NCBI GenBank assembly: GCA_022842445.1 | Contig: JALHPO010000001.1 | Span: forward strand, 144,482 to 208,481 | Source: Nitrospira sp. | Lineage (GTDB): Bacteria > Nitrospirota > Nitrospiria > Nitrospirales > Nitrospiraceae | DNA: 64,000 nt | Direction of reading: 5' to 3' | In this document: piece by piece, positions 30,438 to 55,374 of the stretch | Layout of the letters: each line of letters starts with the position of its first letter | Position numbering within the stretch: the stretch's first letter is position 1 | Position numbers and translations under genes: made by a program | The notes under the pieces: model-generated | Database searches by the model: none | Seen by the model: the letters and a program-made list of their open reading frames with translations, nothing else | Told to the model about the DNA's origin: nothing

Positions 30438-30514
<77 letters not shown>

Positions 30515-30533
30515 AATCTATATTTTCAATCAC

Positions 30534-31682
30534 TTACGTGTGCTTATTTGCAGAGTAGGTAGCCCTGGACTCGGCTAGTGTTCCCCTAGTGTTCTCTTGG
30601 AGGTATTTGTGAACCTTTTGAGCCGCTTGCGTCAAGTCCCGCTCCTCAATCGCGTTGTATCGCTTCCACATCTTCTCTGACTTATGCCCAACAATTTTCA
30701 TCGCGGTTGCCGTGTCTACCCCTGCTCTTCGTAGGTTCGTGGAGGCACAGTGGCGAAGGTCATGGAATCGAAAATCTGAGATCCCGGCATCCTTCAGAGC
30801 GGTCTTGAAGGACCGGCTGACACGTTGAAGCGGCCTACCCTCATAGGTAAAGACATGTCGAGAGACAGCTTCGGTCGTCGCCGTCGTAAGGGTCCGAACC
30901 TTTGCCAGACGCTGCAGTGTCACTTTAACATCCGGGGTCATAGGCACCTGTCGAGCAGTCTTGGTCTTTGTATCCAGAGACCGCAGAGTGATGAAGCCTC
31001 GCTTTATATCGACCCGGTCCCAAGTGAGGCCGACAATTTCGCTGAACCGCTGCCCTAACTGGTAGGCCGTGAGAAGAACAGGACGCAAATGCGGTTTAGC
31101 TGCCTGATACAGCTTGCTCCATTCTTCGTCGCTCAATACACGATCGCGTTCGTTCTCCGGATTGGGTAAAGGAACTTTTGATGCCGGGTTGCTTTGAAGC
31201 AGGCCTCTCCGGATCGCCACGTTCAGACAATGCTTGAGTGCAATGTGATCGTGATTCACGGTCTGCACACTTGCTGGCTTGCCGTTCTTTTTCTTTCGCT
31301 GCCCCCTGAAGGCTTCCACGTCCTGCGGTCTGATCTCTGACAATATCCTCCCACCGAAAAACGGAACCAAATGACCCTCGATACTGTGCGACCGGCCCAC
31401 GAAGGACCGGAGCGACTTCACTTCCTCTAATTGCAAATACGTCTTGGCCCACTCCTTGAAGAGGATTGGCTTAGCCCGTTCACTACGTTCCTGACCGAGG
31501 AGTAGACGCGTCCTGATGGTCGATTCCATATCCCGGGCAGCGGTTTTGTTCAGGCAGCCGACCTTCCAGCGTTTCTTTCTGGCTCCCGGCACCCCGCTCG
31601 CTAAGACGAGAGATTTTCCGTCTTCGCTTTCCATGACGCGAAATTCAACATAGTAACTGTCAGGTCGTTTGGTCAGTCCCAT
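30534..31682 (-). CDS. int: tyrosine-type site-specific integrase
   Basis: 382 aa. The C-terminal catalytic region FHDLRHCASTNLRRAGVDTATAMKIVGHKSEKMWKRYNAI carries the R...HxxR...H..Y pattern. It is adjacent to the tRNA. Confidence 0.9.
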   Translation of the reverse strand: MGLTKRPDSYYVEFRVMESEDGKSLVLASGVPGARKKRWKVGCLNKTAARDMESTIRTRLLLGQERSERAKPILFKEWAKTYLQLEEVKSLRSFVGRSHSIEGHLVPFFGGRILSEIRPQDVEAFRGQRKKKNGKPASVQTVNHDHIALKHCLNVAIRRGLLQSNPASKVPLPNPENERDRVLSDEEWSKLYQAAKPHLRPVLLTAYQLGQRFSEIVGLTWDRVDIKRGFITLRSLDTKTKTARQVPMTPDVKVTLQRLAKVRTLTTATTEAVSRHVFTYEGRPLQRVSRSFKTALKDAGISDFRFHDLRHCASTNLRRAGVDTATAMKIVGHKSEKMWKRYNAIEERDLTQAAQKVHKYLQENTRGTLAESRATYSANKHT

Positions 31683-33222: not shown

Positions 33223-33244
33223 TGGTCATCACCCCCTTTCTGGT

Positions 33245-33349
33245 TTAGAGTCGCCCAATCAACAATTTCACAATGAGGCCGACGGTGAAGCCACCCAGGA
33301 AGAAGGCGCCGGCAAAGTAGACGATTGTTTCGAGTGCCGCTTGATCCAT
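33245..33349 (-). CDS. tiny hydrophobic ORF (34 aa), minor-coat-like
   Basis: My translation is MDQAALETIVYFAGAFFLGGFTVGLIVKLLIGRL. Its size and position are typical of inovirus small virion or assembly proteins. It is below the ORF-track cutoff. Confidence 0.3.
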   Translation of the reverse strand: MDQAALETIVYFAGAFFLGGFTVGLIVKLLIGRL

Positions 33350-33377
33350 CGCGTCTGTCTCCCTTTCTCCGAGCTGG

Positions 33378-34511: not shown

Positions 34512-34783
34512 GAGCCCCACCGCACAAACGGGACCGATTGCAGGACAAAGCGCGTCAGCATGGCCCCGGCGACAATCGCCAACGCTTGGGACATCCCCGT
34601 CGCACCCAGCAGCCAGGCATATTGATCGGGAATCAGCGGCGTGGAGAGCGAGCCGGTGCCGAGCGAGGCGAGGATGCCATCGGCGGGACTCAAGACCGAG
34701 TCCCAACTGTCCAGCACGATGTCCTTCAACGTGCCGAAGAAGTCACGCAGCCAACAGAGGATGGCATTCAGAATCGCGCTCAT
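34508..34783 (-). CDS. pVI-like minor coat protein (91 aa)
   Basis: Hydrophobic small protein between the adsorption-like gene and zot, with overlapping start and stop on both sides. The call is positional inference. Confidence 0.4.
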   Translation of the reverse strand: MSAILNAILCWLRDFFGTLKDIVLDSWDSVLSPADGILASLGTGSLSTPLIPDQYAWLLGATGMSQALAIVAGAMLTRFVLQSVPFVRWGS

Positions 34784-36060: not shown

Positions 36061-36098
36061 GTGAGTTGCTCCGAGACAGTTAAGTCAGTCCAGACCAT
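36003..36098 (-). CDS. tiny hydrophobic ORF (31 aa), pVII/pIX-like
   Basis: My translation is MVWTDLTVSEQLTWALFFVSTFLIGLWVGRH. It lies between the ssDNA-binding-sized gene and the adsorption-like gene and overlaps the latter's annotated start. Confidence 0.25.
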   Translation of the reverse strand: MVWTDLTVSEQLTWALFFVSTFLIGLWVGRH

Positions 36099-36113
36099 CG
36101 CGTTATCCTCGCC

Positions 36114-36413
36114 TTACGACTTGGCCTGGTCCTTGCCGGACGCGGCCATCGCACCGGTGACAGGTTGATAGCCGGTCACATCCAGAAACCGTTGCCCCTT
36201 GTACTCCCGAAGATTGATGGTCACGTGCGCGAGCTTCATCTTGTTGGCCTCCATGAGCTTGTAGAGCGATTCATGCTCATCGGAGACGCTCGCTTCGAGG
36301 GTGGTGGTGTCTTCCTCGAAATAGAGCACGGCATTGCGGAAGATGCGTTTCCCGTCCTGACTCGGTCTCGACTTGACGCCCATCACCACACAATTCGCGA
36401 CGAACTTCGACAT
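36114..36413 (-). CDS. putative ssDNA-binding protein (gVp-like by size and position)
   Basis: ORF 36114..36515 trimmed to MSKFVANCVVMGVK..., which has a perfect AAGGAGG RBS. It is 99 aa and sits immediately downstream of rep. No sequence motif recognised. Confidence 0.4.
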   Translation of the reverse strand: MSKFVANCVVMGVKSRPSQDGKRIFRNAVLYFEEDTTTLEASVSDEHESLYKLMEANKMKLAHVTINLREYKGQRFLDVTGYQPVTGAMAASGKDQAKS

Positions 36414-36542
36414 GATCGACCCCTCCTTGTAATTAGTTGGACCACTGAAACCAGCCCCGCTTAAAGCAGGACCACAAAAACACCCAGACCGTCCGACAGC
36501 TCCGACACCGGCCACGCAATCGCGGCCCGCACATGTAGAGCT

Positions 36543-37580
36543 TCAGGTACCCGGTGCGGCATATCCGGCAGAGAATCCGTCTCTGGGATTCCACCACCGG
36601 ATCTTCCGCTTGGCTGTCTGGGCGTCCCGGCCACTCGCTAAGAGGGCCAGATGTTTGCTTCGCCATCGTTCCACTCCATCGACAATTGTTTTGACGAGCC
36701 ACCGTTCACCCGCTTCCGGATGGGCACACAACAGTCCCAACATGGGGGAGAGACTCTTTTCTGCCCACCGCTTGACCTCTTCGATCTTCTTCACGGACTT
36801 GGCAATGTCGAGACGTGCCCGCTGCATGCCCTCCGTCAGGACCTTCCACCAGTCCAAAAGAGGCGCGTAGTACCGATCTTTCGGATCATCGGCTCTGGTG
36901 CAGTCGCGGAAATCGACGGCACTGCGAAACACCCCGACGATGTATTTCTGAAACGAGTCCTGATCCAAGCCGGACAAGGCCATGCCCACAGCCTGGGCCC
37001 GTTCCGCTTTCCATTCCATTTCCCAACGAATCCATGGCCCTTCGACCGGTTTGTCCTTGGAGCGTTGTTCGGCGGCTTTGTCGTAGATGCGGAGATACGT
37101 ATCCGACTGGCGGGAACCCAGGCAGATGGTTTTGCCGGTATCTGAGCCGGAGCCCAGATCAAGCCCTGAGATCATGCGTGATTGGCGGAAATGCGACACG
37201 CAGTTCCCTTTGACCACCGAGGCATAGATGCGATCGATATCAATCAGGCCGCTGCGATCATCCAAAGCCACATCAATCCGTCCGAAATGGCCTTTCTTCT
37301 CAATCACCCAACTGGCCACTTGTTTGAACTGGTCGTAGGTCCAGCCACTGATGAGTTCTTGTGAGAGATCGACATGCACTTCACGGGGATTGCGTTTCGC
37401 TCCCGTGCCGATCCGGCCAAGGCCACCCGTGTTCCCACGGGACAACCAGGCTTGGGCATAGCCCTGAAAGCCTTTGTGATCCTTGATCCAGTCGGACCCG
37501 ACGAGAGACATGATCTCCTCGACGGTGGCCTCAGGAACGGTGAACCGAAACCAGCCGATGACACAGGTCCAGAGACTCAT
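36543..37580 (-). CDS. rolling-circle replication initiator (Rep_trans / RstA-like)
   Basis: MSLWTCVIGWFRFTVPE..., GRIDVALDD and TICLGSRQSDTYLRIYDKAAEQ match the Rep_trans pattern (idWl.fT, R.DiA.D, G.T.Y.Gsr.S....RiYdK) that I associate with CTX/Pf-type phage initiators. Confidence 0.8.
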   Translation of the reverse strand: MSLWTCVIGWFRFTVPEATVEEIMSLVGSDWIKDHKGFQGYAQAWLSRGNTGGLGRIGTGAKRNPREVHVDLSQELISGWTYDQFKQVASWVIEKKGHFGRIDVALDDRSGLIDIDRIYASVVKGNCVSHFRQSRMISGLDLGSGSDTGKTICLGSRQSDTYLRIYDKAAEQRSKDKPVEGPWIRWEMEWKAERAQAVGMALSGLDQDSFQKYIVGVFRSAVDFRDCTRADDPKDRYYAPLLDWWKVLTEGMQRARLDIAKSVKKIEEVKRWAEKSLSPMLGLLCAHPEAGERWLVKTIVDGVERWRSKHLALLASGRDAQTAKRKIRWWNPRDGFSAGYAAPGT

Positions 37581-37885
37581 GGCTTCCTCCTAAGGGCACC
37601 TTGGAAATTCCGCCCCCGTTTTACTAATCGGGGGCTGTCGGGCTGAGCGCGCCGCCGGCTCTCGCCGCCGGGCGCGCGGCTCTCCCCCTGCTGTGATGTG
37701 GTCTCTCCGAAGTGACCCTGTCCGTTCCGCCTCATCGCCTCCTTGACCTGCTCCACGTCGAAGCGGACAGACCGGAAGAGGCGCTCGACAGGGATCTCGC
37801 CACTGAGATAGGCCCGGCGGATGGTCTTAATGCTCACTTTGAGGGCCGAGGCCAGTTCGTGAATGGTCAGCCACGATGCTTTCAT
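37577..37885 (-). CDS. excisionase-family HTH DNA-binding protein (phage regulator)
   Basis: ORF 37577..37927 trimmed to MKASWLTIHELASALKVSIKTIRRAYLSGEIPVERLFRSVRFDVEQV. Its stop overlaps the rep start. Confidence 0.6.
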   Translation of the reverse strand: MKASWLTIHELASALKVSIKTIRRAYLSGEIPVERLFRSVRFDVEQVKEAMRRNGQGHFGETTSQQGESRAPGGESRRRAQPDSPRLVKRGRNFQGALRRKP

Positions 37886-38585
37886 TCGTCTCCTCGTTTC
37901 GCTGTGGCTCAACATGGTCCCGACCATACTGATGCCGACGGAGCTGAGGAAAGTACCCGTGAGGGGTCAGGAAAGGTCAGCAGAGGACACGAAGGGACTG
38001 TAGTGCTGAGCAGTGATGGTGATGAGTTATGCGGTCACTCCCCGCTCCTTCGTCTCCGGTGATTCGTGAGACGAAGTGTCTTGAATCACGAACCCCTCGC
38101 CAGATGCAACGACTAGCGTATCGGAACACTGTGGAGTTTTCGGGCCGAGGGAAACGAATGAGAACGATTGAGCAGGAAATGTCAGCAACGAACTGGATGT
38201 TTGTGAGGTCAGGCCAAGAATAATTTGGACCTAGGCCGAATGGATCTAGTTCGGTCTCGTTTCCTGTCAGGGGAGACGACGCTTTTGTCCAGCTTTCGAT
38301 ACGGTGGTCATCCGCCTCAACCCTGGTGATTTCTCAAGGGAAAAGGGGTATTCTGCGGCGGCAAAGCCTTTAACTGACGGATGTATTTATAAATGCCCAG
38401 ACTCGATAGGAAGTCACTCAGCGAACGTTGCATCTGTACCAAGTTCACCACACCCGCCGTCGAGCAGGCAGGGGACAGGTTTTATACGGGCCAGATAATG
38501 TACGCTTAGATGACACGTCACGATCGCTGGAGGTATCCAGCCCTTGTTTATGGCCAAGGATGCTTAGCGGAGGTTTCAATCGCTC

Positions 38586-40583
38586 ATGATCGACTACGCG
38601 CAAGGTAATATTTCTGAAGCATTTAACTCAATGCTCCGTGCGGACTACATTTCGCTCAATGATATTGAGAAGTTGAATCTTCTCTCTCGATACTACGTCG
38701 ACTATTTCGGCGTGCTTCCTGAAGTATTGTCCGACACTGATCAGCTGATTGTCGGTAGGCGTGGAACCGGAAAGACCACACTGGTGTATCGCGCCTTCGT
38801 TGGATGTATGGAATCCTGGAATGACGAACACCCCGACAATATTGCCCCGAAGGCCCGGACTCTCGGGATATATGTCGATCTTAGCAAGTGCCAGTACATC
38901 GACGATGTTCCCGATGGTGATTTTGCAGCGTTTGAACACGCATTCGTGAGCGAGGTTTGTGATGCGATCGGGGACCAACTGACTCGATTCTGGCCTGCCT
39001 TGGCGCAGGAACCGGGATTCTTCGCTAAGCTGTTTAGGGCAGCGGAAAGCAATCGAGTTGCGGAAGTGCGTGGTGTGCTTGATCGGATTGGGCAACTGCT
39101 CAGGGAGGGTTTGCCTCGCGTTGTCGACCAGTCTGCACCCATTCAAGCGAAGGATGTGATGTCCTCAACTCAAACACGATCTGCGGAGCTGGGAGGAAGT
39201 ATCAACCCAACGGAGGCTTCGGTTGCCACCAAGCTTAATGAGGGGAAGAGTGACTCCCAGAGCACTGAGCGTAGCTACAGTACGCGGACGAGCTACAGGC
39301 TCACGGTGTCGGACGTTCTGCGTATTCTTGGCGATCTACGAGAGAAAGCACAATTGTCGGGGACATATCTGTTCATCGACGAATTCTCAGCCCTCTCGAC
39401 AGATCTCCAAAGGCGCTTCTCGACGCTGCTCAAGAAGCTCCTGGGGTCACATGCCGGCGTCTTCGTTAAGCTCTGTGCCATCACCGACAAATACACGCTC
39501 GGCAGTTCGATTATCCTTCAGCGAGACCTGTTTGAGTTGTCGCTCGATCTTGACGCTTTCGTGGAGCGCTCACATTCCCTCAACGACGCAATGGACGGAT
39601 TGCGCGACTACTCCGAGAAAATTGTCCGTTCACGATTACAAGCCTACAGCTGTCCACCGCCAGAGGAAGTCTTTGATGAGCTGGACGAGACCTACAAATT
39701 GCTCAGCAAGTCAGCGATGGGGGTGCCGCGTACATTGGGCATTGTACTCAAGCAGGCATGGAGCCGTTCTCGTCAGGGCCAAGAGCGCAAGATCCGAAAG
39801 TCTGACATCTCCTCCGGGGTGCGATATGCCTCAACTGCCTACCTCAACCAATTGATAGGGGCAGCACGCGATGGCGTAGCGATCCCAGCATTCCATGCGG
39901 ACATGTGGAACGCTCTATTAACTCGCGCACAGCAAGAAAAAGCCAAAGTGCCTGAGGCAGCCGCAAGCCATTTCCTGATTCTTACACGCAATGAACAAAT
40001 GTTGAGCATGCTCAACATGTTCTTTCTGGTACATTTGCTTACGAAGGGCAGAACCACGAAGAAGGAGCGGTCCACCCGCAGTCTCTACTGCTTTGACTTC
40101 GGCGTCTGCGAAGAAAACAATCTAGGGTTTACCACTGACAAAAATGTCATAAGGCAACAGCGTTTTGCGTACGACGACGCTCTTGTCCGTTTCGAAAAGT
40201 ACTTCGGCGTAACAGCTGAGGCGACGTTCCGTTGTCCCCAGTGCGGAACGGTATATAGCGAGAGCGAGCTAGTGGTTGCCGGAACGCAACTCTCATTCTG
40301 CCCACGCGACAAGGCCGATCTCGTGAGCCAGGCCGGCGCCGTTACTGGAGCGCAATATACTGAAGAGGAAACGAAGATCATTGGGACGATCCGGTCAGCG
40401 GGTCGAGGTGATCGCGTGTTTGCCCGGCAAATCGCTGACGATGTCGGCTGCTACGTCCAGAAGGTTTCAAAGTTTGGAGAAAAACTTGACAGGAGTGGGC
40501 TCGCGAAGCGTGAGCCCGACCCAACTGAGAACAAGCTATTCTACTACAGCGGAGGCTCTAGCAAGGAGAGCAGCACGCCCTAG
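38586..40583 (+). CDS. P-loop ATPase (ORC/Cdc6-like by eye) with C-terminal zinc ribbon and wHTH; function unknown
   Basis: 665 aa. Walker A is VGRRGTGKTTLVYRAF, Walker B is YLFIDEFSAL, the Zn ribbon is FRCPQCGTVYSE...LSFCPRDKADL, and the C-terminal wHTH-like stretch is EEETKIIGTIRSAGRGDRVFARQIADDVGCYVQKVSKFGEKLDRSGLAKRE. Confidence 0.6.
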   Translation: MIDYAQGNISEAFNSMLRADYISLNDIEKLNLLSRYYVDYFGVLPEVLSDTDQLIVGRRGTGKTTLVYRAFVGCMESWNDEHPDNIAPKARTLGIYVDLSKCQYIDDVPDGDFAAFEHAFVSEVCDAIGDQLTRFWPALAQEPGFFAKLFRAAESNRVAEVRGVLDRIGQLLREGLPRVVDQSAPIQAKDVMSSTQTRSAELGGSINPTEASVATKLNEGKSDSQSTERSYSTRTSYRLTVSDVLRILGDLREKAQLSGTYLFIDEFSALSTDLQRRFSTLLKKLLGSHAGVFVKLCAITDKYTLGSSIILQRDLFELSLDLDAFVERSHSLNDAMDGLRDYSEKIVRSRLQAYSCPPPEEVFDELDETYKLLSKSAMGVPRTLGIVLKQAWSRSRQGQERKIRKSDISSGVRYASTAYLNQLIGAARDGVAIPAFHADMWNALLTRAQQEKAKVPEAAASHFLILTRNEQMLSMLNMFFLVHLLTKGRTTKKERSTRSLYCFDFGVCEENNLGFTTDKNVIRQQRFAYDDALVRFEKYFGVTAEATFRCPQCGTVYSESELVVAGTQLSFCPRDKADLVSQAGAVTGAQYTEEETKIIGTIRSAGRGDRVFARQIADDVGCYVQKVSKFGEKLDRSGLAKREPDPTENKLFYYSGGSSKESSTP

Positions 40584-40756
40584 AGTTTGTGCTTTGTGCT
40601 CGACCATCTAATTAGCATATCGAGACCGACGCGCAATGCAAAAGGACGCGCCCGACTCATGCTCAAAGTGTTAGCCCTGGGAATCACCGGCGTGGCTGAA
40701 AGTGTTGTCGGTTGCTGCGGTTGAATTTCTTTACGGGCAATCACCTGCCTGAACTG

Positions 40757-43084
40757 ATGAATGAGAGAAACGAGGAGATAGTGGATCAAGCAACTCATAA
40801 CAAAATCGTCTCCTTCATCTGGGGGATCGCCGACGATGTGCTGCGCGATTTGTTCAAGCGCGGTAAGTACCCGGATGTGATCCTGCCGATGTGCGTGATC
40901 CGTCGCATGGACGCGGTGCTCGAGCCGACCAAGCAGAAGGTGCTGGATACCAAGAAGATGCTCGACAAGGCGCACATTACCGAGCAGCGTGCGGCGCTCT
41001 GTGAAGCTTCGGGTCAGGCATTTTACAACACCTCGAACTTCACTCTGCGCGATCTCAGGTCTCGCGGAAGTCAGCAGCAGCTACTCGCCGACTTCGAGGA
41101 CTACCTCAACGGCTTCTCACCCAATGTTCAGGAAATCATTGAGAATTTCAAGTTCCGGAATCAGCTGCACACGCTCTCTAAGGCCGATGCAATCGGGACG
41201 CTGATCAACAAGTTCCTAGACCCGGAGATCGACCTCTCGCCAGCTAACATCGATAACCATGCGATGGGCACAATTTTTGAGCACCTAGTCCTCAAGTTCA
41301 ACGAGGAGAACAACGAGGAGGCGGGCGAACACTGGACGCCGCGCGACGCCGTTCGCCTGATGGCGAACCTCGTGTTCCTGCCGATTGAGGCCGAGATCAG
41401 GTCGGGCACCTACCTGCTGTACGACTGCGCTTGCGGCACGGGCGGCATGCTCACGGTCGCAGAGGAGACACTGACGGCTATTGGCGCGAAGCGCGGTCAG
41501 CAGGTCAAGTGCCTGCTCTATGGTCAGGAGATCAACCCCGAGACCTACGCCGTCTGCAAGGCGGATATGCTGCTGAAGGGCGAAGGCGAAAGCGCCGACC
41601 ACATTGTTGGTGGCGCGGAATGGTCCACGCTCGCGCACGATGCCTTCCCTGCGCAAGGGTTCGACTTCATGCTCGCCAATCCGCCCTACGGGAAGAGCTG
41701 GAAGAAGGATCTCGAAGCGATGGGCGGCAAGGACGGGATGCGCGACCCGCGCTTCAAAGTGATGCACCAGGGCGAAGAGCTGTCGCTCGTCACCCGCTCC
41801 AGCGACGGCCAGATGCTCTTCCTCGCCAACATGGCGTCGAAGATGAACGAGAAGTCGGCGCTCGGCAGCCGCATCGCCGAGGTGCACAACGGCTCGTCGC
41901 TCTTCACCGGCGACGCCGGCCAGGGCGAGAGCAACATCCGACGCTGGCTGATCGAGAACGACTGGCTTGAGGCCATTGTCGCGCTGCCGCTCAACCTCTT
42001 TTACAACACCGGTATCGCCACCTACGTCTGGGTGCTGTCCAATAAGAAGCCCTCACACCGCAAGGGCCACGTGCAGCTCATCGACGCTAGCCAGTGGTTC
42101 AAGCCATTGCGGAAGAATCTTGGCAAGAAGAACTGTGAGCTTTCCCCTGGGGATATTGAACGCATCAGCCGCACCTTCCTCGATTTCAAGGAGGCGCCCG
42201 AGTCGAAGATCTTCCCCAACGCCGCCTTTGGCTACTGGAAGGTCACGGTCGAGCGCCCGCTTCGCCTGCACAGCCAGCTCACGCTCAAGGCTATCGAAAC
42301 GCTGCGCTTCACCTCAGGCGACGAGGACATTCGGGCGTCCCTGTACGAGGAGTTCGGCGATGACCTCTTCAATAACTTCGCCAAGGTCTCATCTCAGCTC
42401 GAAAAGCGCCTGGCCGACTGGGGGAACGACGAAGACGAAGGCGATGATGAAGAAGGTGCTAGTGCGAAGAAGGGCTTGCCTGAGAAGAAGAAAAAGAAAC
42501 TGCTCGATCCCAAAACCTGGGAGCGCGATGGCCGCTTGGTCGAAGTCGCCACGAAGCTGCGCGAGGCCTTGGGCGATCAGCTCTTCGAAGACCACAACAT
42601 CTTCCGCGACCGCGTTGAGGCCGCGCTCAAGAAGGCGGACATCAAGCTCGCTGCCGCCGACCTCAAGCAGATCCTCAAGGCCGTGAGTTGGCGCGTCGAG
42701 ACCGCTCCACCCGTCATTGCCAAGGTCCACAAGCCGGGCAAGGCCAAGGCCGATCCGCTTCGCGGCCTGTTAGAGGCGACGGTGGAAGGCAAGCCCGCGA
42801 TTGTCGAGTACGAGCCTGATTCCGACCTGCGAGATACCGAGCAAGTGCCGCTCTTGGAAGAAGGCGGCATCGAAGCCTTCATCCGCCGCGAGGTGCTGCC
42901 CTATACGCCCGATGCGTGGATCAAGGAAGACGCCACCAAGATCGGCTACGAGGTGAGCTTCACGCGGCACTTCTACAAGCCGCAGCCGCTGCGCACGCTG
43001 GAGGAGATCACCGCCGATATCCTGGCCATCGAGAGAGAGGCCGAGGGGCTGCTGGGTGAGATTATCGGGGAGAAATCACGATGA
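40757..43084 (+). CDS. hsdM: type I restriction-modification methyltransferase subunit HsdM
   Basis: ORF 40712..43084 trimmed to the ATG at 40757. N-terminal HsdM_N pattern IVSFIWGIADDVLRD, motif I YDCACGTGGML and motif IV FMLANPPYGKSW. Confidence 0.9.
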   Translation: MNERNEEIVDQATHNKIVSFIWGIADDVLRDLFKRGKYPDVILPMCVIRRMDAVLEPTKQKVLDTKKMLDKAHITEQRAALCEASGQAFYNTSNFTLRDLRSRGSQQQLLADFEDYLNGFSPNVQEIIENFKFRNQLHTLSKADAIGTLINKFLDPEIDLSPANIDNHAMGTIFEHLVLKFNEENNEEAGEHWTPRDAVRLMANLVFLPIEAEIRSGTYLLYDCACGTGGMLTVAEETLTAIGAKRGQQVKCLLYGQEINPETYAVCKADMLLKGEGESADHIVGGAEWSTLAHDAFPAQGFDFMLANPPYGKSWKKDLEAMGGKDGMRDPRFKVMHQGEELSLVTRSSDGQMLFLANMASKMNEKSALGSRIAEVHNGSSLFTGDAGQGESNIRRWLIENDWLEAIVALPLNLFYNTGIATYVWVLSNKKPSHRKGHVQLIDASQWFKPLRKNLGKKNCELSPGDIERISRTFLDFKEAPESKIFPNAAFGYWKVTVERPLRLHSQLTLKAIETLRFTSGDEDIRASLYEEFGDDLFNNFAKVSSQLEKRLADWGNDEDEGDDEEGASAKKGLPEKKKKKLLDPKTWERDGRLVEVATKLREALGDQLFEDHNIFRDRVEAALKKADIKLAAADLKQILKAVSWRVETAPPVIAKVHKPGKAKADPLRGLLEATVEGKPAIVEYEPDSDLRDTEQVPLLEEGGIEAFIRREVLPYTPDAWIKEDATKIGYEVSFTRHFYKPQPLRTLEEITADILAIEREAEGLLGEIIGEKSR

Positions 43085-43884
43085 ATGCCGTGCCATCCTT
43101 CCCGGAAGGACAGATTGAAGCATTGGCACGCTTGCTAGGCGAATGTGGGTCCGGGACGGACATCTCCCGTGTATTGAACGATCGTGGGCTGGCGGACGCA
43201 TCCGGTGAGTCCACCAAGTGGCGTCGCCTCTATTGGGTATTTCTCGAATCGCAAAAGCAGCATCAATGCGCAAATCGCGTGCTCGACTTCATTCAATCCT
43301 TCTTGATTCCTGCCCGCTTTGTTGGACGGAGTACAGAGTTTGAGGCGAATCGACAAGAACTCAATATGATCCTGGCCTTTTCCGGTCTCGAATACGGCCA
43401 GGATGGAAAATTCAGACAACGTGAGGCCGCACGAACACTCGATGAGGCCGAGAGACGTGTCCGAACCATTCGGGCCAAATTCCAGGGGCGCCGCATACAT
43501 CCCGAAGTATTGAAGTACTGCCGAACCGAGCTGCTCCAAGACAACTACTTTCACGCCGTTTTCGAATCCAGCAAAGGGCTTGCCCAGAGAATACGCGATC
43601 TATCTGGAATCTCGGCTGATGGCGCTGCACTAGTCGATCATGCCTTTTCGATCGAGTGCCCGCTTCTTGCCATCAATACGCTACGGACCGATACAGAGAA
43701 GACTGAGCACAAAGGCTTTGCCGCTCTTCTGAAAGGATGCTTCGGGGCTGTCCGGAATCCTCTTGCGCACGAACCGAAGATTCTCTGGGACGGCGAAGAC
43801 GATGCTGCCGATTATCTATCCCTAATTTCACTGCTGCATCGCAAGCTGGATAATGCTACGACGACAGGATTCAGAACAGAATGA
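43081..43884 (+). CDS. TIGR02391 (Ymh)-family protein, HEPN-like
   Basis: NYFHAVFESSKGLAQRIRDLSG...HKGFAALLKGCFGAVRNPLAHE...AADYLSLISLLHRKLD includes an RNPLAH (Rx4H) motif. It has 4-nt overlaps with hsdM and hsdS. Confidence 0.65.
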   Translation: MNAVPSFPEGQIEALARLLGECGSGTDISRVLNDRGLADASGESTKWRRLYWVFLESQKQHQCANRVLDFIQSFLIPARFVGRSTEFEANRQELNMILAFSGLEYGQDGKFRQREAARTLDEAERRVRTIRAKFQGRRIHPEVLKYCRTELLQDNYFHAVFESSKGLAQRIRDLSGISADGAALVDHAFSIECPLLAINTLRTDTEKTEHKGFAALLKGCFGAVRNPLAHEPKILWDGEDDAADYLSLISLLHRKLDNATTTGFRTE

Positions 43885-45311
43885 TTGCCAACCTCAAACC
43901 GTACTCGGAATACAAGGAGACAGGGTCAAAGTGGCTTGGCGCTGTCCCGGCGAAGTGGGAAGTACGAAACCTCCGTACGCTCATCTCGAAGCGGGCAGAA
44001 CGCAATCGAGCCGACTTGCCGCTGTTGTCAGTTGCTCGTGAGAAAGGCGTGTTCGTCCGTTCCCTCACCGATGCAGATGAGAATCACAACGTCATTCCGG
44101 AAGATCTGAGCAACTACAAGATGGCTCGTGCCGGCAATCTCGTGATCAACAAGATGAAGGCGTGGCAGGGCTCAATGGGAATCGCGCCATGCGATGGAAT
44201 TGTCAGCCCAGCCTACTATGTCTTCGACTTTCGTATTGGCAACAAGGCTTTCGGCCTAAAGTTGCTTCGCAGCAAACCCTACATCGCGCACTTTGGGCGG
44301 GCATCCGATGGGGTGCGAGTCGGTCAGTGGGATTTATCTATCCCTGGAATGCGACAGATTCCCGTGCTCCTCCCGCCGCCCGACGAGCAGGCGGCGATTG
44401 TGCGGTTTCTGGACTGGGCGAACGGGCGGCTGGAGCGGGCGATCCGGGCGAAGCGCAAGGTGATCGCGCTGCTCAACGAGCAGAAGCAGGCCATCATCCA
44501 CCGCGCCGTCACCCGCGGCCTCGACCCCTCCGTCCTCCTCAAACCCTCCGGCATCCCCTGGCTCGGCGACATTCCGGAGCATTGGGAAGCCGCACGACTG
44601 AAGTTTATGGTTCGCAGGATCACGGATGGAGAGCACATCTCCCCGGTGGTGGCGGATCAGGGCATTCCTCTGCTTTCCGCAAAAGATGTCAGAGACCGAA
44701 TGATCCTCATGGGAGTAGATAAGTTCGTTACCCCGGAGCAAGCAAGACAGTTTTGGCGTCGCTGTCGGCCTCAACAAGGCGATGTTCTGATTGTTAGCCG
44801 TGGCGCCACGATTGGTCGAGTAGCTATCGTCGAAAGCAGTGAGCCATTCTGCCTGATGGGAAGCGTGATTCTCTGCAACTGCCGTGAGGGTTACAGCCAC
44901 GGGTTTCTCTACTACGCACTCAATGCGCATCATGCACAGACATCTTTGTGGTTCACCTCCGCTTCAAGCGCGCAACAAGCGATTTATATCAAGGACGTTG
45001 CGGAATTGCGTTTACCTCTACCACCTGGTGATGAACGCACTGTGATCGAGAAGCATTTGGATGATTCTCTTACCCCACTGCACGCCGCTATCTCCCGCCT
45101 CGACCGCGAGATCGATCTCCTTCGCGAATACCGCACCCGCCTCGTTGCCGATGTCGTCACCGGCAAGCTTGATGTGCGAGCGGCGGTGGCCAAGCTGCCG
45201 GAAGAAACCGATGAGGCAGAGAAGCTCGATGACGCAGACGCCCTTACCGAGGGCGATGAGGAAACGGGAGACGTGGACCTCGACGCAGTGACCCAGGAGG
45301 CTGAGGCGTGA
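43881..45311 (+). CDS. hsdS: type I R-M specificity subunit HsdS
   Basis: 476 aa. It has two target-recognition halves separated by conserved helices (PPPDEQAAIVRFLD ... and PLPPGDERTVIEKHLD ... IDLLREYRTRLVADVVTGKLDV). Confidence 0.85.
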   Translation: MIANLKPYSEYKETGSKWLGAVPAKWEVRNLRTLISKRAERNRADLPLLSVAREKGVFVRSLTDADENHNVIPEDLSNYKMARAGNLVINKMKAWQGSMGIAPCDGIVSPAYYVFDFRIGNKAFGLKLLRSKPYIAHFGRASDGVRVGQWDLSIPGMRQIPVLLPPPDEQAAIVRFLDWANGRLERAIRAKRKVIALLNEQKQAIIHRAVTRGLDPSVLLKPSGIPWLGDIPEHWEAARLKFMVRRITDGEHISPVVADQGIPLLSAKDVRDRMILMGVDKFVTPEQARQFWRRCRPQQGDVLIVSRGATIGRVAIVESSEPFCLMGSVILCNCREGYSHGFLYYALNAHHAQTSLWFTSASSAQQAIYIKDVAELRLPLPPGDERTVIEKHLDDSLTPLHAAISRLDREIDLLREYRTRLVADVVTGKLDVRAAVAKLPEETDEAEKLDDADALTEGDEETGDVDLDAVTQEAEA

Positions 45312-46804
45312 GTCCGGACCGTTCCACAGAGTACTTTGCCAGCTTGGTCCGCGAGCTACGCACGCTGCCTCGTGAAACTGAGTGGGTCGAATTTAAGGCG
45401 AACAATTCAAACCCCCTTGAGATCGGTGAGTACATCTCTGCGCTGGCGAACGCGGCCGCACTGCTCGATAAGCCACGGGCTTACGTCTTATGGGGTGTCG
45501 AGGATGGTACGAGGAACGTGGTTGGCACTATCTTTGAGCCCACGACAGTAAAGCAGGGCAACGAGAATCTGGAGAACTGGCTTACGCGACTGCTGCAACC
45601 GCAGATTCCCTTCCGTTTCCACGCGTGTGAGGTCGATGGCGCACGTGTCGTGCTCCTAGAAATCGACCGTGCGCTGCATCAACCTGTTCGGTTCAGCGGT
45701 GAGGAATATATCCGTGTCGGCTCGTACAAGAAAAAGCTCAAGGACCATCCTGAGAAGGAGCGCGCGCTCTGGCAGTGCTTCACGGTGACAGCCTTTGAGG
45801 ATGGCATGGCCGCGCAGCGATTGAGCGGTGACGAGGTCCTTCAGCTGCTGGCGTTTCCGTCGTATTTTGACCTTCTCCATACTCCGCTTCCGTCTGATCA
45901 AACGGGTATTCTCGCCGCATTTGCAGCCGATGGGCTTGTTCAGCGGGCCGAGGGCGGTTCGTGGAGCATTACCAACCTCGGAGCCATCCTGTTCGCCAAG
46001 GATCTGTCAAAGTTCGATGGCCTTCGGCGAAAGATTGTGCGCATTGTTCAATACGCCGGGAAGGGCCGCATCCTGACGACGAAGGAGCAATCGGTTGTAT
46101 CTGGCTATGCTGTAGGCTTTGAGGCTCTTATCCAAAGCGTGATCGCGGTGCTTCCGACGAATGAGGTGATCGAGCAAGCGCTGCGCAAGTCTGTACCGAT
46201 GTTTCCGCCGCTTGTCGTGCGTGAAGTTGTCGCGAATGCTCTTATCCACCAAGACTTCTCTATCTCGGGTGCGGGGCCGATGGCCGAAGTGTTTGATGAT
46301 CGAATGGAGGTCACGAACCCTGGCCGGCCATTGGTTCCCACCGATCGCTTGCTCGATCAGCCGCCGCGTTCACGGAATGAGAAGCTTGCCTCGCTCATGC
46401 GAAGGTTCGGCATCTGCGAAGAACGCGGGAGCGGTATTGACAAGGTTGTTTTCCAGATCGAGCTCTTTCAACTTCCTGCACCCCTGTTCGAGGTGCCGGG
46501 CGAGTCCATGCGCGTCGTACTGTTCGGCCATCGCGTACTGAAGGACATGGAGAAGGCGGATCGAGTACGCGCGTGCTACCTCCACGCGTGCTTGCGGTAT
46601 GTGACTCGCCAGCCCATGACCAATACCTCCCTCCGGGAGCGCTTCGGGATCGACGAGAAGAACGCCGCACTGGCGTCTCGTCTACTCAACGAGGCCATCG
46701 AGGCAGGGGCGATTCTGGTGCGGGATCCAGAGGCAGGCACGCGGAATCGAACCTATCTCCCGTTCTGGGCGGGAGCTTCCACAGCGAAAGAAGGAATTGC
46801 TTGA
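45308..46804 (+). CDS. AlbA_2 (Schlafen-like) + HATPase_c_4 + wHTH protein
   Basis: ETEWVEFKANNSNPLEIGEYISALANAAALLDKPRAYVLWGVED (AlbA_2 pattern) and REVVANALIHQDFSISGAGPMAEVFDDRMEVTNPG (HATPase_c_4 pattern). It overlaps the hsdS stop by 4 nt. Confidence 0.65.
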   Translation: MSPDRSTEYFASLVRELRTLPRETEWVEFKANNSNPLEIGEYISALANAAALLDKPRAYVLWGVEDGTRNVVGTIFEPTTVKQGNENLENWLTRLLQPQIPFRFHACEVDGARVVLLEIDRALHQPVRFSGEEYIRVGSYKKKLKDHPEKERALWQCFTVTAFEDGMAAQRLSGDEVLQLLAFPSYFDLLHTPLPSDQTGILAAFAADGLVQRAEGGSWSITNLGAILFAKDLSKFDGLRRKIVRIVQYAGKGRILTTKEQSVVSGYAVGFEALIQSVIAVLPTNEVIEQALRKSVPMFPPLVVREVVANALIHQDFSISGAGPMAEVFDDRMEVTNPGRPLVPTDRLLDQPPRSRNEKLASLMRRFGICEERGSGIDKVVFQIELFQLPAPLFEVPGESMRVVLFGHRVLKDMEKADRVRACYLHACLRYVTRQPMTNTSLRERFGIDEKNAALASRLLNEAIEAGAILVRDPEAGTRNRTYLPFWAGASTAKEGIA

Positions 46805-47004
46805 TGGTTTGCTTTCCGGCAACCCTTTCGCAACAATCTGCTCCTCGTAACGCATTGAAAGGGTACAGCTTAAAGATTTTTGCGTTGCTTGATGGTTGCT
46901 TGATTAGAACGGGGATTGGCAAGTGAAACGGAAGGTCAGCTCCTTTGAAATCAACAGGTAAGAGAATCCGTGGTACTTGATGGCTACTTGATGAGAGGTT
47001 CCTC

Positions 47005-50000
47005 GTGAGCACCGACACCAGCGAGAAGGGCCTCGAAACGCTCATCATGCGGCACATGACCGGCACGGATGGTCTCGCCATCGTGCCGAACATGACTGCT
47101 GAACGGCTCGCGCCTTATGGCGGGACTGGCTATATCGCAGGGGGCGCGCAGGACTATGACCGCGCCCACGCGCTCGATGTGTCGCAGCTCTTCGCCTTCT
47201 TGCCTGACACCCAGCCCGAGGCGTTCAAGAAATTGGCAATGGCCGACGCCAGCGACCCCACGGACATCAACCGCCTCAAGTTCCTTGCCCGGCTCTCCGC
47301 CGAGATCGGCAAGCGCGGTGTTATTGACGTGCTGCGCAAGGGTGTGGAGCACGGGCCGATGCACTTCGATCTCTTCTATGGTACGCCCTCACCGGGTAAT
47401 GCCAAGGCCGAGGCGCTTCACGCGCAGAACCGTTTCTCGGTTACACGCCAGCTTGCTTATAGCATGGACGAGACGCGCCGTTCACTCGACTTGTGTCTGT
47501 TCATCAACGGCTTGCCCATCGCCACCTTCGAGCTGAAGAATAGCCTCACCAAGCAGACCGTCGCGGATGCCATCGAACAGTACAAGCGTGACCGCAACCC
47601 GCGCGAGCGGCTTTTTGAGTTTGGCCGCTGCGTGGTGCACTTTGCCGTGGACGATAGCGAGGTGCAGATGTGCACGGAACTTCGAGGCAAGAGTTCGTGG
47701 TTCTTGCCCTTCAACAAGGGCTATCTCGACGGCGCTGGCAACCCACCCAATCCGCATGGCCTCAAGACCGACTATCTCTGGAAAGAGGTCCTTACCCCAA
47801 CAGGCCTGACCAACATTCTTGAGAACTATGCGCAGATCGTCGAGGAGAAGGACCCACGCACCAGCAGAAAGAAGCGCAAGCAGGTGTGGCCGCGTTATCA
47901 CCAGCTCGGCGTGGTGCGACAGGCGCTGGCCGATGTGCGCGCCCACGGGGCTGGTAAGCGTTACCTGATCCAGCATTCGGCGGGTAGCGGCAAGTCCAAC
48001 TCCATCGCCTGGCTCTCGCATCAGCTTATCGGACTGAAGCGCGAGGATAAGGACATCTTCGACTCGGTCGTCGTCGTTACCGACCGGCGTCTGCTTGACC
48101 ATCAGATCCAGACAACCATCAAGCAGTTCATGCAGGTTGGGGCGACGGTCGGTCATGCCAAGGATTCTGGTGACCTGCGAAAATTCATTCAGGAGGGGAA
48201 GAAGATCATCGTCTCGACGGTGCAGAAGTTTCCCCATATCCTTGATGAAATCGCCACCGAGGGCGGCAAGTGCTTCGCCATCGTCATTGACGAGGCCCAC
48301 TCAAGCCAGGGCGGAAGGACTTCTGCTGCGATGAGCCAGGCGCTCGGCGACGCCAAGGGTGATGAAGAGGAGGGGACCGACCCCGAAGACACGGTGAACG
48401 AGGCGCTCGAGAAGCGCATGGCAGCGCGCAAGATGCTGACCAATGCCAGCTACTTCGCTTTCACCGCCACACCCAAGAACAAGACGCTCGAGATGTTCGG
48501 GGAGCCGCTGCCGCCCGATGCCGAGGGCAAGGTCAAGCACCGGCCCTTCCACAGCTACACGTTGAAGCAAGCGGTCGAGGAGGGCTTCATTCTCGACGTG
48601 CTCAAGGCCTACACGCCGGTGGACAGCTACTACAAGCTGGTCAAGAAGACCGAGGACGACCCTGAATTCGACACCAAGAAGGCCAAGAAGAAGCTGCGCC
48701 GGTATGTGGAGAGCCATGACTACGCGATCGGGCTCAAGGCCGAGATCATGGTGGACCACTTCCATGAGCAGGTGCTGGCGGCCGGGAAGATCGGCGGCCA
48801 GGCCCGCGCGATGGTGGTGACGAGCGGTGTCGACCGGGCCATCCAGTACTTCCACGCCTTCAAGACGTACTTGGTGGAGCGCAAGAGCCCGTACCAGGCG
48901 ATCGTTGCCTTCTCGGGCGAGCACGATTACGGCGGCGCGCGGGTCAGCGAGGTGTCGCTCAACGGCTTCTCGAGCGGCGAGATCGCCGCCAAGATCCAGA
49001 CCGACCCGTACCGCTTCCTGATTTGCGCAGACAAGTTCCAGACTGGCTACGACGAGCCGCTGCTGCACACAATGTACGTGGACAAGCCGCTCTCGGGCAT
49101 CAAGGCGGTGCAGACCTTGTCGCGCCTCAACCGCGCGCACCCGCAAAAGTACGACTGCTTCGTGCTCGACTTCCAGAACAACGTCGAGGCGATCACCTTC
49201 GCCTTCCAGGACTACTACCGTACCACGCTGCTCGCCGAGGAGACCGACCCCAACAAGCTGCACGACCTCAAGGCGGCGCTCGATGCGGTCCAGGTATATT
49301 CGCCGGAGCAGGTTCGGCAGGTGGTGGCGTTGTTTCTCGACGGCGCGGATCGCGACGCCCTCGACCCGATCCTTGATGCGTGTGTGGCCGTTTATATGGA
49401 CAGGCTCGACGAAGACGGCCAGGTAGATTTTAAGAGCAAGGCCAAGGTCTTCTGCCGCACCTATGCCTTCTTGTCATCAGTGATCTCGTACAGCAACGCA
49501 CAGTGGGAGAAGCTGTCCATCTTCCTCGACCTGCTGACGCCGAAGCTACCTGCGCCGAAGGAGGAGGACCTCGCGAAAGGCATTCTCCAGGCTATCGATA
49601 TGGACAGCTACCGCGTTGAGAAAAAGACAACGATGAAGATCGCCCTGGCTGACCAGGATGCGGAGATTGAGCCCGTGCCAACGGACGCTCACGGGCACAA
49701 AGCCGAGCCCGAGATGGATCGCTTGAGCCAAATCATCAAGACCTTCAACGAGCAGTTCGGCACCTTGTTCACCGACACCGACCGGGTGGCGAAGCGTATC
49801 CGCGACGACATCGCACCCAAGGTCGCCGCCGACACGGCCTACCAGAACGCGAAGGAGAACACCCCGCACACTGCGCGCATGGCGCACGATCAGGCGCTGG
49901 GCAAGGTGATGCAGCACCTACTGAAGGACGATACGCAGGTTTACAAGCAGTTCGTCGAAAATGAGTCGTTCCGGCGGTTTGTCGGCGATATGGTGTACGC

Positions 50001-50019
50001 GATCACCACTCAGAGATGA
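47005..50019 (+). CDS. hsdR: type I restriction endonuclease subunit HsdR
   Basis: 1,004 aa. IQHSAGSGKSNSIAWL (motif I), FAIVIDEAHSSQGG (DEAH), FAFTATPKNKT and QTLSRLNR (motif VI). GTG start. Confidence 0.9.
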   Translation: MSTDTSEKGLETLIMRHMTGTDGLAIVPNMTAERLAPYGGTGYIAGGAQDYDRAHALDVSQLFAFLPDTQPEAFKKLAMADASDPTDINRLKFLARLSAEIGKRGVIDVLRKGVEHGPMHFDLFYGTPSPGNAKAEALHAQNRFSVTRQLAYSMDETRRSLDLCLFINGLPIATFELKNSLTKQTVADAIEQYKRDRNPRERLFEFGRCVVHFAVDDSEVQMCTELRGKSSWFLPFNKGYLDGAGNPPNPHGLKTDYLWKEVLTPTGLTNILENYAQIVEEKDPRTSRKKRKQVWPRYHQLGVVRQALADVRAHGAGKRYLIQHSAGSGKSNSIAWLSHQLIGLKREDKDIFDSVVVVTDRRLLDHQIQTTIKQFMQVGATVGHAKDSGDLRKFIQEGKKIIVSTVQKFPHILDEIATEGGKCFAIVIDEAHSSQGGRTSAAMSQALGDAKGDEEEGTDPEDTVNEALEKRMAARKMLTNASYFAFTATPKNKTLEMFGEPLPPDAEGKVKHRPFHSYTLKQAVEEGFILDVLKAYTPVDSYYKLVKKTEDDPEFDTKKAKKKLRRYVESHDYAIGLKAEIMVDHFHEQVLAAGKIGGQARAMVVTSGVDRAIQYFHAFKTYLVERKSPYQAIVAFSGEHDYGGARVSEVSLNGFSSGEIAAKIQTDPYRFLICADKFQTGYDEPLLHTMYVDKPLSGIKAVQTLSRLNRAHPQKYDCFVLDFQNNVEAITFAFQDYYRTTLLAEETDPNKLHDLKAALDAVQVYSPEQVRQVVALFLDGADRDALDPILDACVAVYMDRLDEDGQVDFKSKAKVFCRTYAFLSSVISYSNAQWEKLSIFLDLLTPKLPAPKEEDLAKGILQAIDMDSYRVEKKTTMKIALADQDAEIEPVPTDAHGHKAEPEMDRLSQIIKTFNEQFGTLFTDTDRVAKRIRDDIAPKVAADTAYQNAKENTPHTARMAHDQALGKVMQHLLKDDTQVYKQFVENESFRRFVGDMVYAITTQR

Positions 50020-51075: not shown

Positions 51076-51339
51076 GGCGCGTGTCTCCTCTCTTGCGCAG
51101 TAGTGTAGTCCCGTGATGTTCTCGCGGGCAACCCATACTCCTTCGCCGGGTTTGGCACTTGCTTGAGCGTCATTCAGTGTAGGCACATTGGCGCGGTGGA
51201 GGCTTTCGAGGGTGGCACGGGGGATAATGAAATGCCAGTATAAGCGGATACCGTCTGACATTTTTCACCCAAATTATTTGACGCTATTGTGTATTCCACA
51301 GTTTCCGGCATAGACTGCGCCCACCGTATATTCTGACGA

Positions 51340-54835: not shown

Positions 54836-54968
54836 TTTTTCGACAAAAATCGACTGAAACGACCTCATTCCACCTGAATAAAACTGAACACCAAAACACG
54901 ATAAACACCGCTCTGGGAGAGGCGCTTTGCTATTCTATCAAGGGGTTACGTGGAAGGGCCTGAAAAGA

Positions 54969-55007
54969 TTAGAAGGCTGATGCTCTATCCGACTGAGCTA
55001 CGGGCGC
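54969..55007. repeat. 39-bp copy of the tRNA-Arg 5' half (putative distal att site of island B)
   Basis: ttagaaggctgatgctctatccgactgagctacgggcgc is identical to 30476-30514, which is tRNA positions 1-39 (5' end through the anticodon loop). Confidence 0.85.
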
Positions 55008-55374
55008 ACGCTTTTACTTTCAAGTACTTGCGGGGACTGCACCTCCGATTCGGATTCGGATTTTACACTATGTGCCTGTTTGTGTGTCCAACTTTCTTGT
55101 CCCCAGGGCCCGAGAGATACGCACATGGTTGTACGCCCCAGCAAGGACCTGTACAGCTCTGATCCAGAGCAGAACGCGATCAGATCACTACGGCGTGCTG
55201 AACACGTATATTTTCGACCCATTGCAGTGTTGATGCTTTCTCACGGCCACTCGGAGGGGCGACATTGGTTAATCCCGTCGCCTAGGGTTCGTTCCAGGTT
55301 CGGCCCTATCAAATCTATCTTAAGCTGCGGGGGGTTACGTATGGCGAGGAAGGCAATCAGTCGAGGTAAGCAAT

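Follow-up and report, generated by a model that had tools for sequence, protein, structure and literature searches.

What is a large P-loop ATPase doing at the head of a type I restriction-modification (R-M) operon? The question is raised by a 64,000-nucleotide stretch of a Nitrospira sp. genome (GenBank assembly GCA_022842445.1, contig JALHPO010000001.1, positions 144,482 to 208,481; hereafter the window), in which a gene for a 665-aa protein (38586..40583, + strand) lies just upstream of hsdM. An earlier note on this DNA, made from the sequence alone, described an orphan ATPase with a zinc ribbon and a winged helix-turn-helix (wHTH) tail, heading the R-M locus, and offered it as a candidate single-gene defence or sensor. 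The analysis presented here confirms that observation and supports part of its interpretation: what holds of the first reading is a single gene, carried on an island and a candidate for defence, and the R-M part does not hold. On comparison of homologous loci, the best reading of the gene is that it is an autonomous, horizontally transferred single-gene module. We propose that the ATPase represents an uncharacterised, widespread, stand-alone ORC/Cdc6-like family without an effector, landing in integrative islands, prophage ends and defence islands, and that its most likely role, judged from this genomic context, is defence against mobile genetic elements. We assign this reading a probability of roughly 0.5.

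A widespread and strongly conserved family

The gene is a complete open reading frame (ORF) running from ATG to stop, the longest of its region, and its translation is uninterrupted, which bears out the 665-aa P-loop protein first described. Its description as an orphan fares less well as far as homologues are concerned. A word-indexed search returned at least 234 of them; of the 120 listed, nearly all have 640-690 aa and align colinearly with 95-100% of the query, and their sources include Burkholderia, an Alcaligenaceae bacterium, Gemmatimonadetes, Micromonospora, Ktedonobacteraceae, Deltaproteobacteria and many metagenomes. An exhaustive profile search gave 650 clusters at 50% identity (E <= 1e-3), 233 of them at E <= 1e-10, with full-length members of 640-720 aa. 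There is also a Pfam family, PF24389 ('ORC-CDC6-like'), discussed below. The word orphan remains apt only for the lack of a conserved partner gene.

A species-level scan, in which one genome per species was taken, yielded 60 loci that span at least eight phyla (Proteobacteria, Thermodesulfobacteriota, Acidobacteriota, Actinomycetota, Chloroflexota, Gemmatimonadota, Bacteroidota and Bacillota). Across phyla the proteins are 50-55% identical and their end-to-end architecture is constant. The family is thus rare per genome, broad and patchy in its distribution, and strikingly well conserved. No match was returned by tblastn of the family against 72,556 plasmids or against 50,697 phage genomes, and only two near-full-length relatives were present among the 2.9 million contigs of IMG/VR; likewise, blastn of E. 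coli genomes with a Kluyvera-type copy gave no match. The 60 loci also include a 54%-identical copy on a 3-kb contig binned to a Methanobacterium metagenome-assembled genome (L007, 338-2263), which points to transfer between domains or else to misbinning.

In comparison with the three closest loci, the protein is 85-89% identical and the DNA only 77-80%, with a nonsynonymous substitution rate (dN) of 0.07-0.09 and a synonymous rate (dS) of 1.5-2.0. With dN/dS at only ~0.045, the gene is under strong purifying selection and clearly functional. Searches of the literature on the family names, on ORC/Cdc6 proteins in defence, on DefensePredictor and on metagenomic selection found no published characterisation of the family.

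Independence from the R-M operon

The earlier note placed the gene co-directionally 170 nt upstream of hsdM, and the gap is indeed ~130-200 nt, depending on which hsdM start is chosen (40757 or 40781 according to gene callers, 40712 for the longest ORF). In this gap a simple scan of the + strand found nothing like a terminator. The linkage was examined by tblastn with eight window proteins (HsdM, Ymh, HsdS, Schlafen-AlbA_2, HsdR, Zot, Rep_trans and HTH_17) against the 10 kb around each homologue, and in 56 homologue loci not one of the eight had a relative. When the scan was extended to 82 non-self loci, the matches were one weak HsdM-like protein (22% identity), two RadC proteins and generic integrases; Zot and Rep_trans were absent from all other homologue loci scanned. 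The idea that the gene heads, partners or senses for the R-M locus is therefore not sustained by the 56 loci, none of which has relatives of HsdM, HsdS, HsdR, Ymh or Schlafen within 10 kb. Its position ahead of hsdM is, as far as the compared sequences go, specific to the island of this window, and the R-M link is incidental.

Nor does any other gene travel with the ATPase. All-against-all clustering of 966 neighbour ORFs revealed no conserved partner, the largest cluster being present in six of 59 loci, and there at variable positions. Of the neighbours, 25 of 39 on the downstream side and 22 of 37 on the upstream side share the strand of the gene, and the median gaps are 182-288 nt; such near-random orientation and spacing led us to reject the layout of an operon head or regulator. 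At the DNA level, the blastn alignments with the closest loci extend from 38578-38586 to 40547-40555, stopping within the coding sequence, and no conserved repeats were seen to flank the gene across loci. Since similarity is confined to the coding sequence and no neighbour is conserved, the moving unit is the gene alone. The single, self-contained gene postulated at the outset is thus borne out.

Neighbours of the homologues

The claim that such ATPases recur in defence islands also finds support: homologues repeatedly adjoin defence and mobile-element genes. Among the 149 nearest neighbours of 44 homologues, raw Pfam counts are highest for Phage_integrase (6), Eco57I (4), ResIII, DEAD and N6_Mtase (3 each), and RadC and HSDR_N (2 each), the counts being spread over 112 families that include ordinary metabolic genes. 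In a raw tally of 11 Pfam-annotated contexts (the query and homologues, 53-100% identity), 10 have defence, toxin-antitoxin or mobile-element genes within 10 kb.

The individual contexts are diverse. In B. gladioli the homologue (P0025, 70% identity) sits at the end of a P2-like prophage (tail, lysis and Dam genes), followed by an Old-family TOPRIM ATPase; in an Alcaligenaceae bacterium (P0029, 69%) it accompanies CBASS genes and a PIN/Phd pair, and in Micromonospora (P0104, 52%) an integrase, an excisionase and a transposase. One homologue (P0012, 79%) occurs in two different integrase-bearing arrangements, one of which also carries Schlafen-AlbA_2 and GmrSD genes; another (P0009, 80%) is near ParE and two copies of HipA. 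Of the closest relatives, P0005 (85%) lies near Cas1, an NmeDI-like endonuclease and a TIR protein (PADLOC PDC-S66, 1e-69), P0004 (87%) near a second PF24389 ATPase, a CARF-like protein and a deaminase, and P0003 (89%) among housekeeping genes on a short contig. Finally, P0079 (54%) is accompanied by ParA, an RHH protein, a resolvase and a transposase.

Two of these regions deserve mention in their own right. Directly upstream of an 87% homologue (L079, 1578-7146) are genes for a 591-aa deaminase-domain protein, an 840-aa PF24389 ATPase and a 333-aa protein matching PADLOC CARF6 (2.9e-26). Together they may form a multi-gene system of their own, centred on a paralogous ORC/Cdc6-like ATPase, whose C-terminus differs from that of the protein studied here and whose Pfam family has no assigned function. 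In the second region (L080, 11937-14105), a 382-aa ORF without a Pfam or PADLOC match overlaps the 3' end of an 85% homologue by 44 nt and is followed by a DUF1883-TIR protein (PADLOC PDC-S66 1e-69, ThsB-like 4e-43).

Architecture of the ATPase

Conservation was read from a 43-sequence alignment and from 44 sequences reaching ~30% identity. An AlphaFold2 (AF2) model of the full protein was built on the 43-sequence alignment (mean predicted local distance difference test score (pLDDT) 77, predicted template modelling score 0.73), and residues 400-665 were modelled separately (pLDDT 88). In the full model, conserved N-terminal helices (residues 1-50) precede an AAA+ alpha/beta core (residues 53-320), with Walker A following strand 53-56 and Walker B lying on strand 260-265. 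Both motifs are present as originally claimed, 196 residues apart. Walker A, or P-loop, GRRGTGKTT (residues 57-65; 38754..38780, +) is invariant in both sequence sets, and so is Walker B, YLFIDEFS (residues 261-268, with D265 and E266; 39366..39389, +). Down to ~30% identity, the invariant positions include the Walker A G57-L66 block (G57, G60, G62, K63 and T64), D265, E266 and the cysteines C550, C553 and C572.

The stretch that separates the Walker motifs holds two distinct elements. The first is a helical insertion after strand 2 (residues ~99-177; 38880..39116, +), for which DSSP of the AF2 model gives strand 93-98 and then helices 99-107, 113-135, 137-140, 145-154 and 158-174. The second is a variable, Ser/Thr-rich insert predicted to be disordered (residues 178-237; 39117..39296, +), with pLDDT below 50 at 178-207 and 209-235. 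Mean column conservation is 0.37 in this insert and 0.28 in a short linker (583-591), against 0.57-0.78 in the folded domains, and these are the sole poorly conserved stretches of the protein. We also considered a KAP-family P-loop NTPase, in which transmembrane helices lie between Walker A and B. Since residues 75-250 contain no hydrophobic stretch (maximum Kyte-Doolittle hydropathy over 19 residues 0.64, against 1.28 for the whole protein), the insert is not a KAP-type membrane segment and this candidate was ruled out.

Beyond Walker B, the interval 39483..39527 (+) encodes T300/D301 and R313, the latter in the motif ILQRD before strand 5; modelled strands 292-298 and 316-319 frame the region. 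T300, R313 and D314 do not vary among the 44 sequences, of which 43 have D301. From conservation and position in the model we infer that T300/D301 may act as sensor 1 and R313 as the arginine finger. The helical lid that follows (residues ~321-400, modelled helices within 322-397; 39546..39785, +) carries a GVPR motif in which G379 and R382 are invariant in the 44 sequences, R382 being a candidate sensor 2. Directly after the lid comes a first winged-helix (WH)-like domain (residues ~401-515; 39786..40130, +), which sits where the WH domain of Orc1/Cdc6 does and has, by DSSP, helices 405-430, 436-454 and 467-478, strand 462-466 and a beta-hairpin wing (strands 482-489 and 498-503).

The zinc-ribbon-like element (residues 546-582; 40221..40331, +) contains exactly the motifs first noted, FRCPQCG (548-554) and FCPRDKADL (571-579), and short modelled strands at 547-549, 556-558 and 580-582. 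The predicted ligands are C550, C553, C572 and D575, spaced as C550-x2-C553 and C572-x2-D575; the cysteine ligands are invariant. Position 575 is D in 41 and C in three of the 44 sequences, and H in some members of the 43-sequence alignment. As all three residues can bind zinc, this pattern argues for a genuine metal site. The C-terminal MarR/ArsR-like wHTH (residues 592-656; 40359..40553, +) is modelled with pLDDT ~90-97 as helices 593-604, 613-620 and 624-636 and strands 640-644 and 651-655. In its putative recognition helix C622 and K626 are invariant and Q625 is found in 43 of the 44 sequences; E593 and E595 are likewise invariant. Although no MarR Pfam match was found for this domain, the proposal of a MarR-like tail is backed by the AF2 models (pLDDT ~90) and by local Foldseek matches.

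Several comparisons point to the ORC/Cdc6 type of ATPase. PF24389 matches residues 35-296 (profile positions 18-251 of 571) with 41.3 bits against a gathering threshold of 27, and the Pfam model does not cover the C-terminal two thirds of the protein (lid, WH, zinc ribbon and wHTH); a precomputed PF24389 match exists for all close homologues, some of which are labelled 'ORC-CDC6 family AAA ATPase' in UniRef. A further Pfam match, to AAA_16, is weak (E 0.0087). Foldseek, the check proposed in the earlier note, was run with the AlphaFold model against the PDB. The top match was archaeal Orc1/Cdc6 on origin DNA (2qby_A, E 8.8e-5, alignment over 560 columns), followed by yeast Cdc6, human ORC4 and the transposition AAA+ protein TnsC, with E ~1e-4 to 1e-3 for the Orc1/Cdc6-ORC matches; proteasomal Rpt subunits, FtsH, RuvBL and the RADAR ATPase RdrA ranked lower. 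Against BFVD only generic AAA+ and helix-turn-helix (HTH) matches were obtained. According to the BREX paper, ORC/Cdc6-clade AAA+ proteins are marked by helices inserted after strand 2, by an arginine that immediately precedes strand 5 and by another arginine in the lid. The AF2 model shows each of these hallmarks (helices 99-174, R313 and R382, respectively), as well as the WH domain directly after the lid.

The C-terminal half matched only winged-helix proteins. Partners of the wHTH were the MarR-family proteins MepR, MexR and SlyA, ArsR/SmtB/CadC, Fur and the WH domain of Pol III RPC39, and further matches of this half were to TFIIIC and to chains of the Pol II pre-initiation complex with tandem WH domains; local superpositions of the wHTH had root-mean-square deviations of 1-3 A over 46-76 residues at a probability of 1.00, but E values of only 0.02-0.3. 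Taken together, the modelled fold supports reading the protein as an ORC/Cdc6-type P-loop ATPase with a zinc ribbon and a wHTH. Of the two types considered in the earlier note, ORC/Cdc6-like with a DNA-binding tail thus stands, and STAND-like (NACHT, NB-ARC or MalT-like) was rejected: there is no TPR, WD40 or LRR repeat domain that could serve as a sensor, and no STAND protein is among the top 50 Foldseek matches.

No nuclease, NADase, protease, kinase or membrane effector domain is detectable anywhere in the protein, and none of the distant relatives offers an informative effector fusion. Two relatives (P0158 and P0164) have a BNR/Sortilin-like N-terminus before the match to the family profile, either a real fusion or an artefact of assembly or gene calling; in P0158 a weak PF24389 match at residues 323-414 suggests that the N-terminal ATPase part is present as well.

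Discussion

If the ATPase defends its host, it could do so in the following way. The complete AAA+ module with its candidate trans-acting arginine implies nucleotide-dependent oligomerisation, so that ATP binding would lead to assembly via the arginine finger. Using its WH, zinc-ribbon and wHTH modules, the oligomer would then load on DNA in the manner of Orc1/Cdc6 at an origin, and would occupy or remodel invading or replicating DNA. The outcome might be a direct block of replication or transcription, or arrest of the infected cell. With three nucleic-acid-binding modules and no effector, action would most likely be by ATP-dependent assembly on DNA. Moreover, a generic nucleic-acid structure or a conserved factor is a more likely ligand than a phage-specific sequence or protein, given that the DNA-binding surfaces hardly vary between phyla and that dN/dS is so low.

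It is reasonable to regard the gene as a candidate one-gene anti-phage system. If the defence role is real, this would be a compact 2-kb system spread across many phyla that has no nuclease, NADase, protease or membrane effector, and its mechanism would have to rest on ATP-driven DNA binding alone. Part of the uncharacterised family PF24389 would gain a function, and the ORC/Cdc6 fold a use in bacteria beyond replication. A more specific idea is immunity by "origin squatting", in which the invariant WH/zinc-ribbon/wHTH array recognises a generic DNA feature and ATP-dependent assembly blocks replication without cleavage or killing. We regard this as speculative and rather improbable; if true, defence would gain a new mechanistic class, and the ORC fold a bacterial use outside replication initiation.

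Several points weigh against a defence role or against the domain reading on which it builds. The sequence is near-invariant and its dN/dS very low, unlike typical fast-evolving phage sensors, and this is our main ground for caution. The lack of a recognisable effector is unusual for a single-gene defence, and the case for defence is drawn from genomic context only. That context is itself mixed: P0003 has housekeeping flanks, glycoside hydrolases and transporters are found near other homologues, and the ParA, RHH protein and resolvase beside P0079 resemble a maintenance module. The likeness to Orc1/Cdc6 is remote, with 10-12% identity and a query-normalised TM-score of at most 0.26, and a hidden Markov model profile search of PDB sequences had no hit but a spurious C2H2 zinc finger. 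PADLOC v2.0.0 has no model for the ATPase, its sole match being one of 16 bits, over Walker A only, to an RtcR/PspF model. NCBIfam 20.0 offers only a sub-threshold match to NF047389, 'P-loop ATPase, Sll1717 family' (36.4 bits against a cutoff of 75, E 3.2e-9, residues 31-426 on profile positions 11-360 of 454), and its antiphage model DS41_1 gives 15 bits against a cutoff of 370. As the earlier note had anticipated, no named system can be assigned, since neither PADLOC nor NCBIfam names the protein.

Could the ATPase instead be a transcription regulator or signal transducer, an ORC/Cdc6-type switch whose wHTH controls island, prophage or stress genes in an ATP-dependent manner? The architecture, with an ATPase, a C-terminal wHTH and no effector, would fit, and STAND-type regulators with C-terminal HTH domains work in a similar way. 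Integrative elements often carry the gene beside integrase and excisionase genes, the invariant recognition helix would suit a conserved operator or partner, and in the window the gene is divergent from Rep_trans and HTH_17 of an inovirus-like element. A precedent is SNJ2 Orf8, an archaeal-virus Orc1/Cdc6 homologue that is activated by DNA damage and controls the lysogeny switch (PMC10123103). By its description, this protein resembles ours as an Orc1/Cdc6-like ATPase that is encoded on an integrated element and has a non-replication role. However, SNJ2 Orf8 is archaeal and belongs to a conserved three-gene module on pleolipovirus proviruses, whereas the present family has no conserved module. 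Neither a neighbour nor flanking DNA is conserved that could be the target operon or operator, similarity stopping at the boundaries of the coding sequence, and Zot and Rep_trans are missing from all other loci. Further, a 50-55%-identical protein is found in phyla with unrelated regulons. On balance, a regulatory role is possible but unlikely.

A role as replication initiator or maintenance protein of an integrative element, either as an ORC/Cdc6-like origin binder or as an AAA+ adaptor of the TnsC/IstB kind, is suggested by the top structural matches (origin-binding Orc1/Cdc6, ORC subunits and TnsC) and by the integrases that adjoin several homologues. The earlier note had named replication or partition contexts as what would speak against defence, and one was found: P0079 lies between ParA plus an RHH protein and a resolvase plus a transposase. 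The plasmid and phage genome collections, in which no match was found, weigh more than this single case. IMG/VR adds only its two relatives, and PHROGs has no family that matches the ATPase. Furthermore, there is no conserved transposase or recombinase partner, some copies stand alone among housekeeping genes, the distribution is patchy and the flanks are not conserved, and the island in the window already has its own Rep_trans initiator. We therefore consider this explanation very improbable. That the ATPase serves the adjacent R-M operon as sensor, regulator or accessory subunit, as its strand and its distance from hsdM and the R-M genes of other types among the commoner homologue neighbours might suggest, is essentially excluded by the comparative sequence data, including the entirely different flanks of homologues that are 85-89% identical.

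How, then, does the proposed defence ATPase compare with known proteins? With archaeal Orc1/Cdc6 and eukaryotic ORC/Cdc6 (PDB 2qby, 7tjh and 7jpo) it shares the three tiers of AAA+ base, helical lid and winged helix as well as the strand-2 insertion, the arginine before strand 5 and the lid arginine, the best Foldseek matches having E 8.8e-5 to 5e-4. It differs in its ~50 extra N-terminal residues, the 60-residue disordered insert, the zinc ribbon and the second wHTH, and in being bacterial, non-essential, patchy and island-borne. The Sll1717 family, whose profile aligns with the ATPase and lid region, is a distant relative to which the protein does not belong, given its score below the cutoff; the literature searched held no characterisation of that family either. 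BrxC/PglY and the DUF499-type ATPases of BREX and BREX-related systems are described in the BREX paper as having, like our protein, an ORC/Cdc6-clade AAA+ module followed by a wHTH in a defence context. Yet BrxC measures 1,200-1,300 aa and is an obligate member of a system of several genes, among them those for PglX and PglZ, whereas the ATPase has no conserved partners; none of the PADLOC Brx models matches it. ORC/Cdc6-like AAA+ ATPases of conflict systems are a known kind, and what is distinctive here is the tail of WH, Cys3-Asp zinc ribbon and wHTH without an effector. For annotation, the lesson is that the gene should not be counted into the neighbouring type I R-M system.

Surroundings in the window

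The mobile-island location proposed earlier is confirmed by 43-nt direct repeats of tRNA-Arg sequence found in a repeat search. The left copy (30473..30515) lies within the tRNA-Arg gene (30438-30514, minus strand) and the right one (54966..55008) is 98% identical; between them they delimit an integrase-bearing island of ~24.5 kb that contains the ATPase gene. Its order is tyrosine integrase (30534..31682, - strand; Pfam Phage_integrase, E 2.6e-28), HTH_17, RadC, an inovirus-like module, the ATPase, the R-M operon, three unknown ORFs and a PilZ protein. RadC-like JAB-domain genes a few kb from the ATPase gene were seen in the window (32259-32768) and in two unrelated loci (L016, 13099-13431; L048, 12296-12415).

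The inovirus-like module (33013-37927, - strand), divergent from the ATPase gene, comprises Zot (33378-34706), a 425-aa ORF without a Pfam or PHROG match (34783-36060), Rep_trans (36543-37580), HTH_17 (37577-37927), all on the - strand, and several small ORFs; its genes do not recur beside ATPase homologues. On the other side, the type I R-M operon (40712..50019, +), defined by Pfam, PADLOC and NCBIfam matches, runs hsdM, Ymh, hsdS, Schlafen-AlbA_2 and hsdR. Two further genes are embedded in it. The Ymh/TIGR02391 protein between hsdM and hsdS (43081-43884, +) matches PADLOC PD-Lambda-3_B (2.5e-80), and a protein with Schlafen AlbA_2 and HATPase_c_4 domains is encoded between hsdS and hsdR (45308-46804, +). 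A PD-Lambda-3 system formed with the ATPase was considered and rejected: Ymh matches component B, but the ATPase matches no PADLOC model of component A. No PD-Lambda-3_A match is listed for the scanned window proteins, HsdM and HsdS being represented by their best 25 PADLOC families only.

Downstream of the operon, three sizeable ORFs (50734-51261, minus strand; 51340-52512; 52602-53954) have no Pfam or PHROG match, and a GC dip to 0.469 at 52-54 kb covers their region; the PilZ-domain protein (54106-54672) lies just inside the right repeat. To the left of the island is a second, low-GC islet (24060-30454, GC 0.46-0.50), bounded by two identical 18-nt direct repeats of the tRNA-Arg 3' end (24060-24077 and 30437-30454). 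It contains a 1096-aa ResIII/DEAD helicase (26627-29917) and two ORFs without a Pfam match (24389-25435 and 25567-26199). The tRNA thus has an island on either side.

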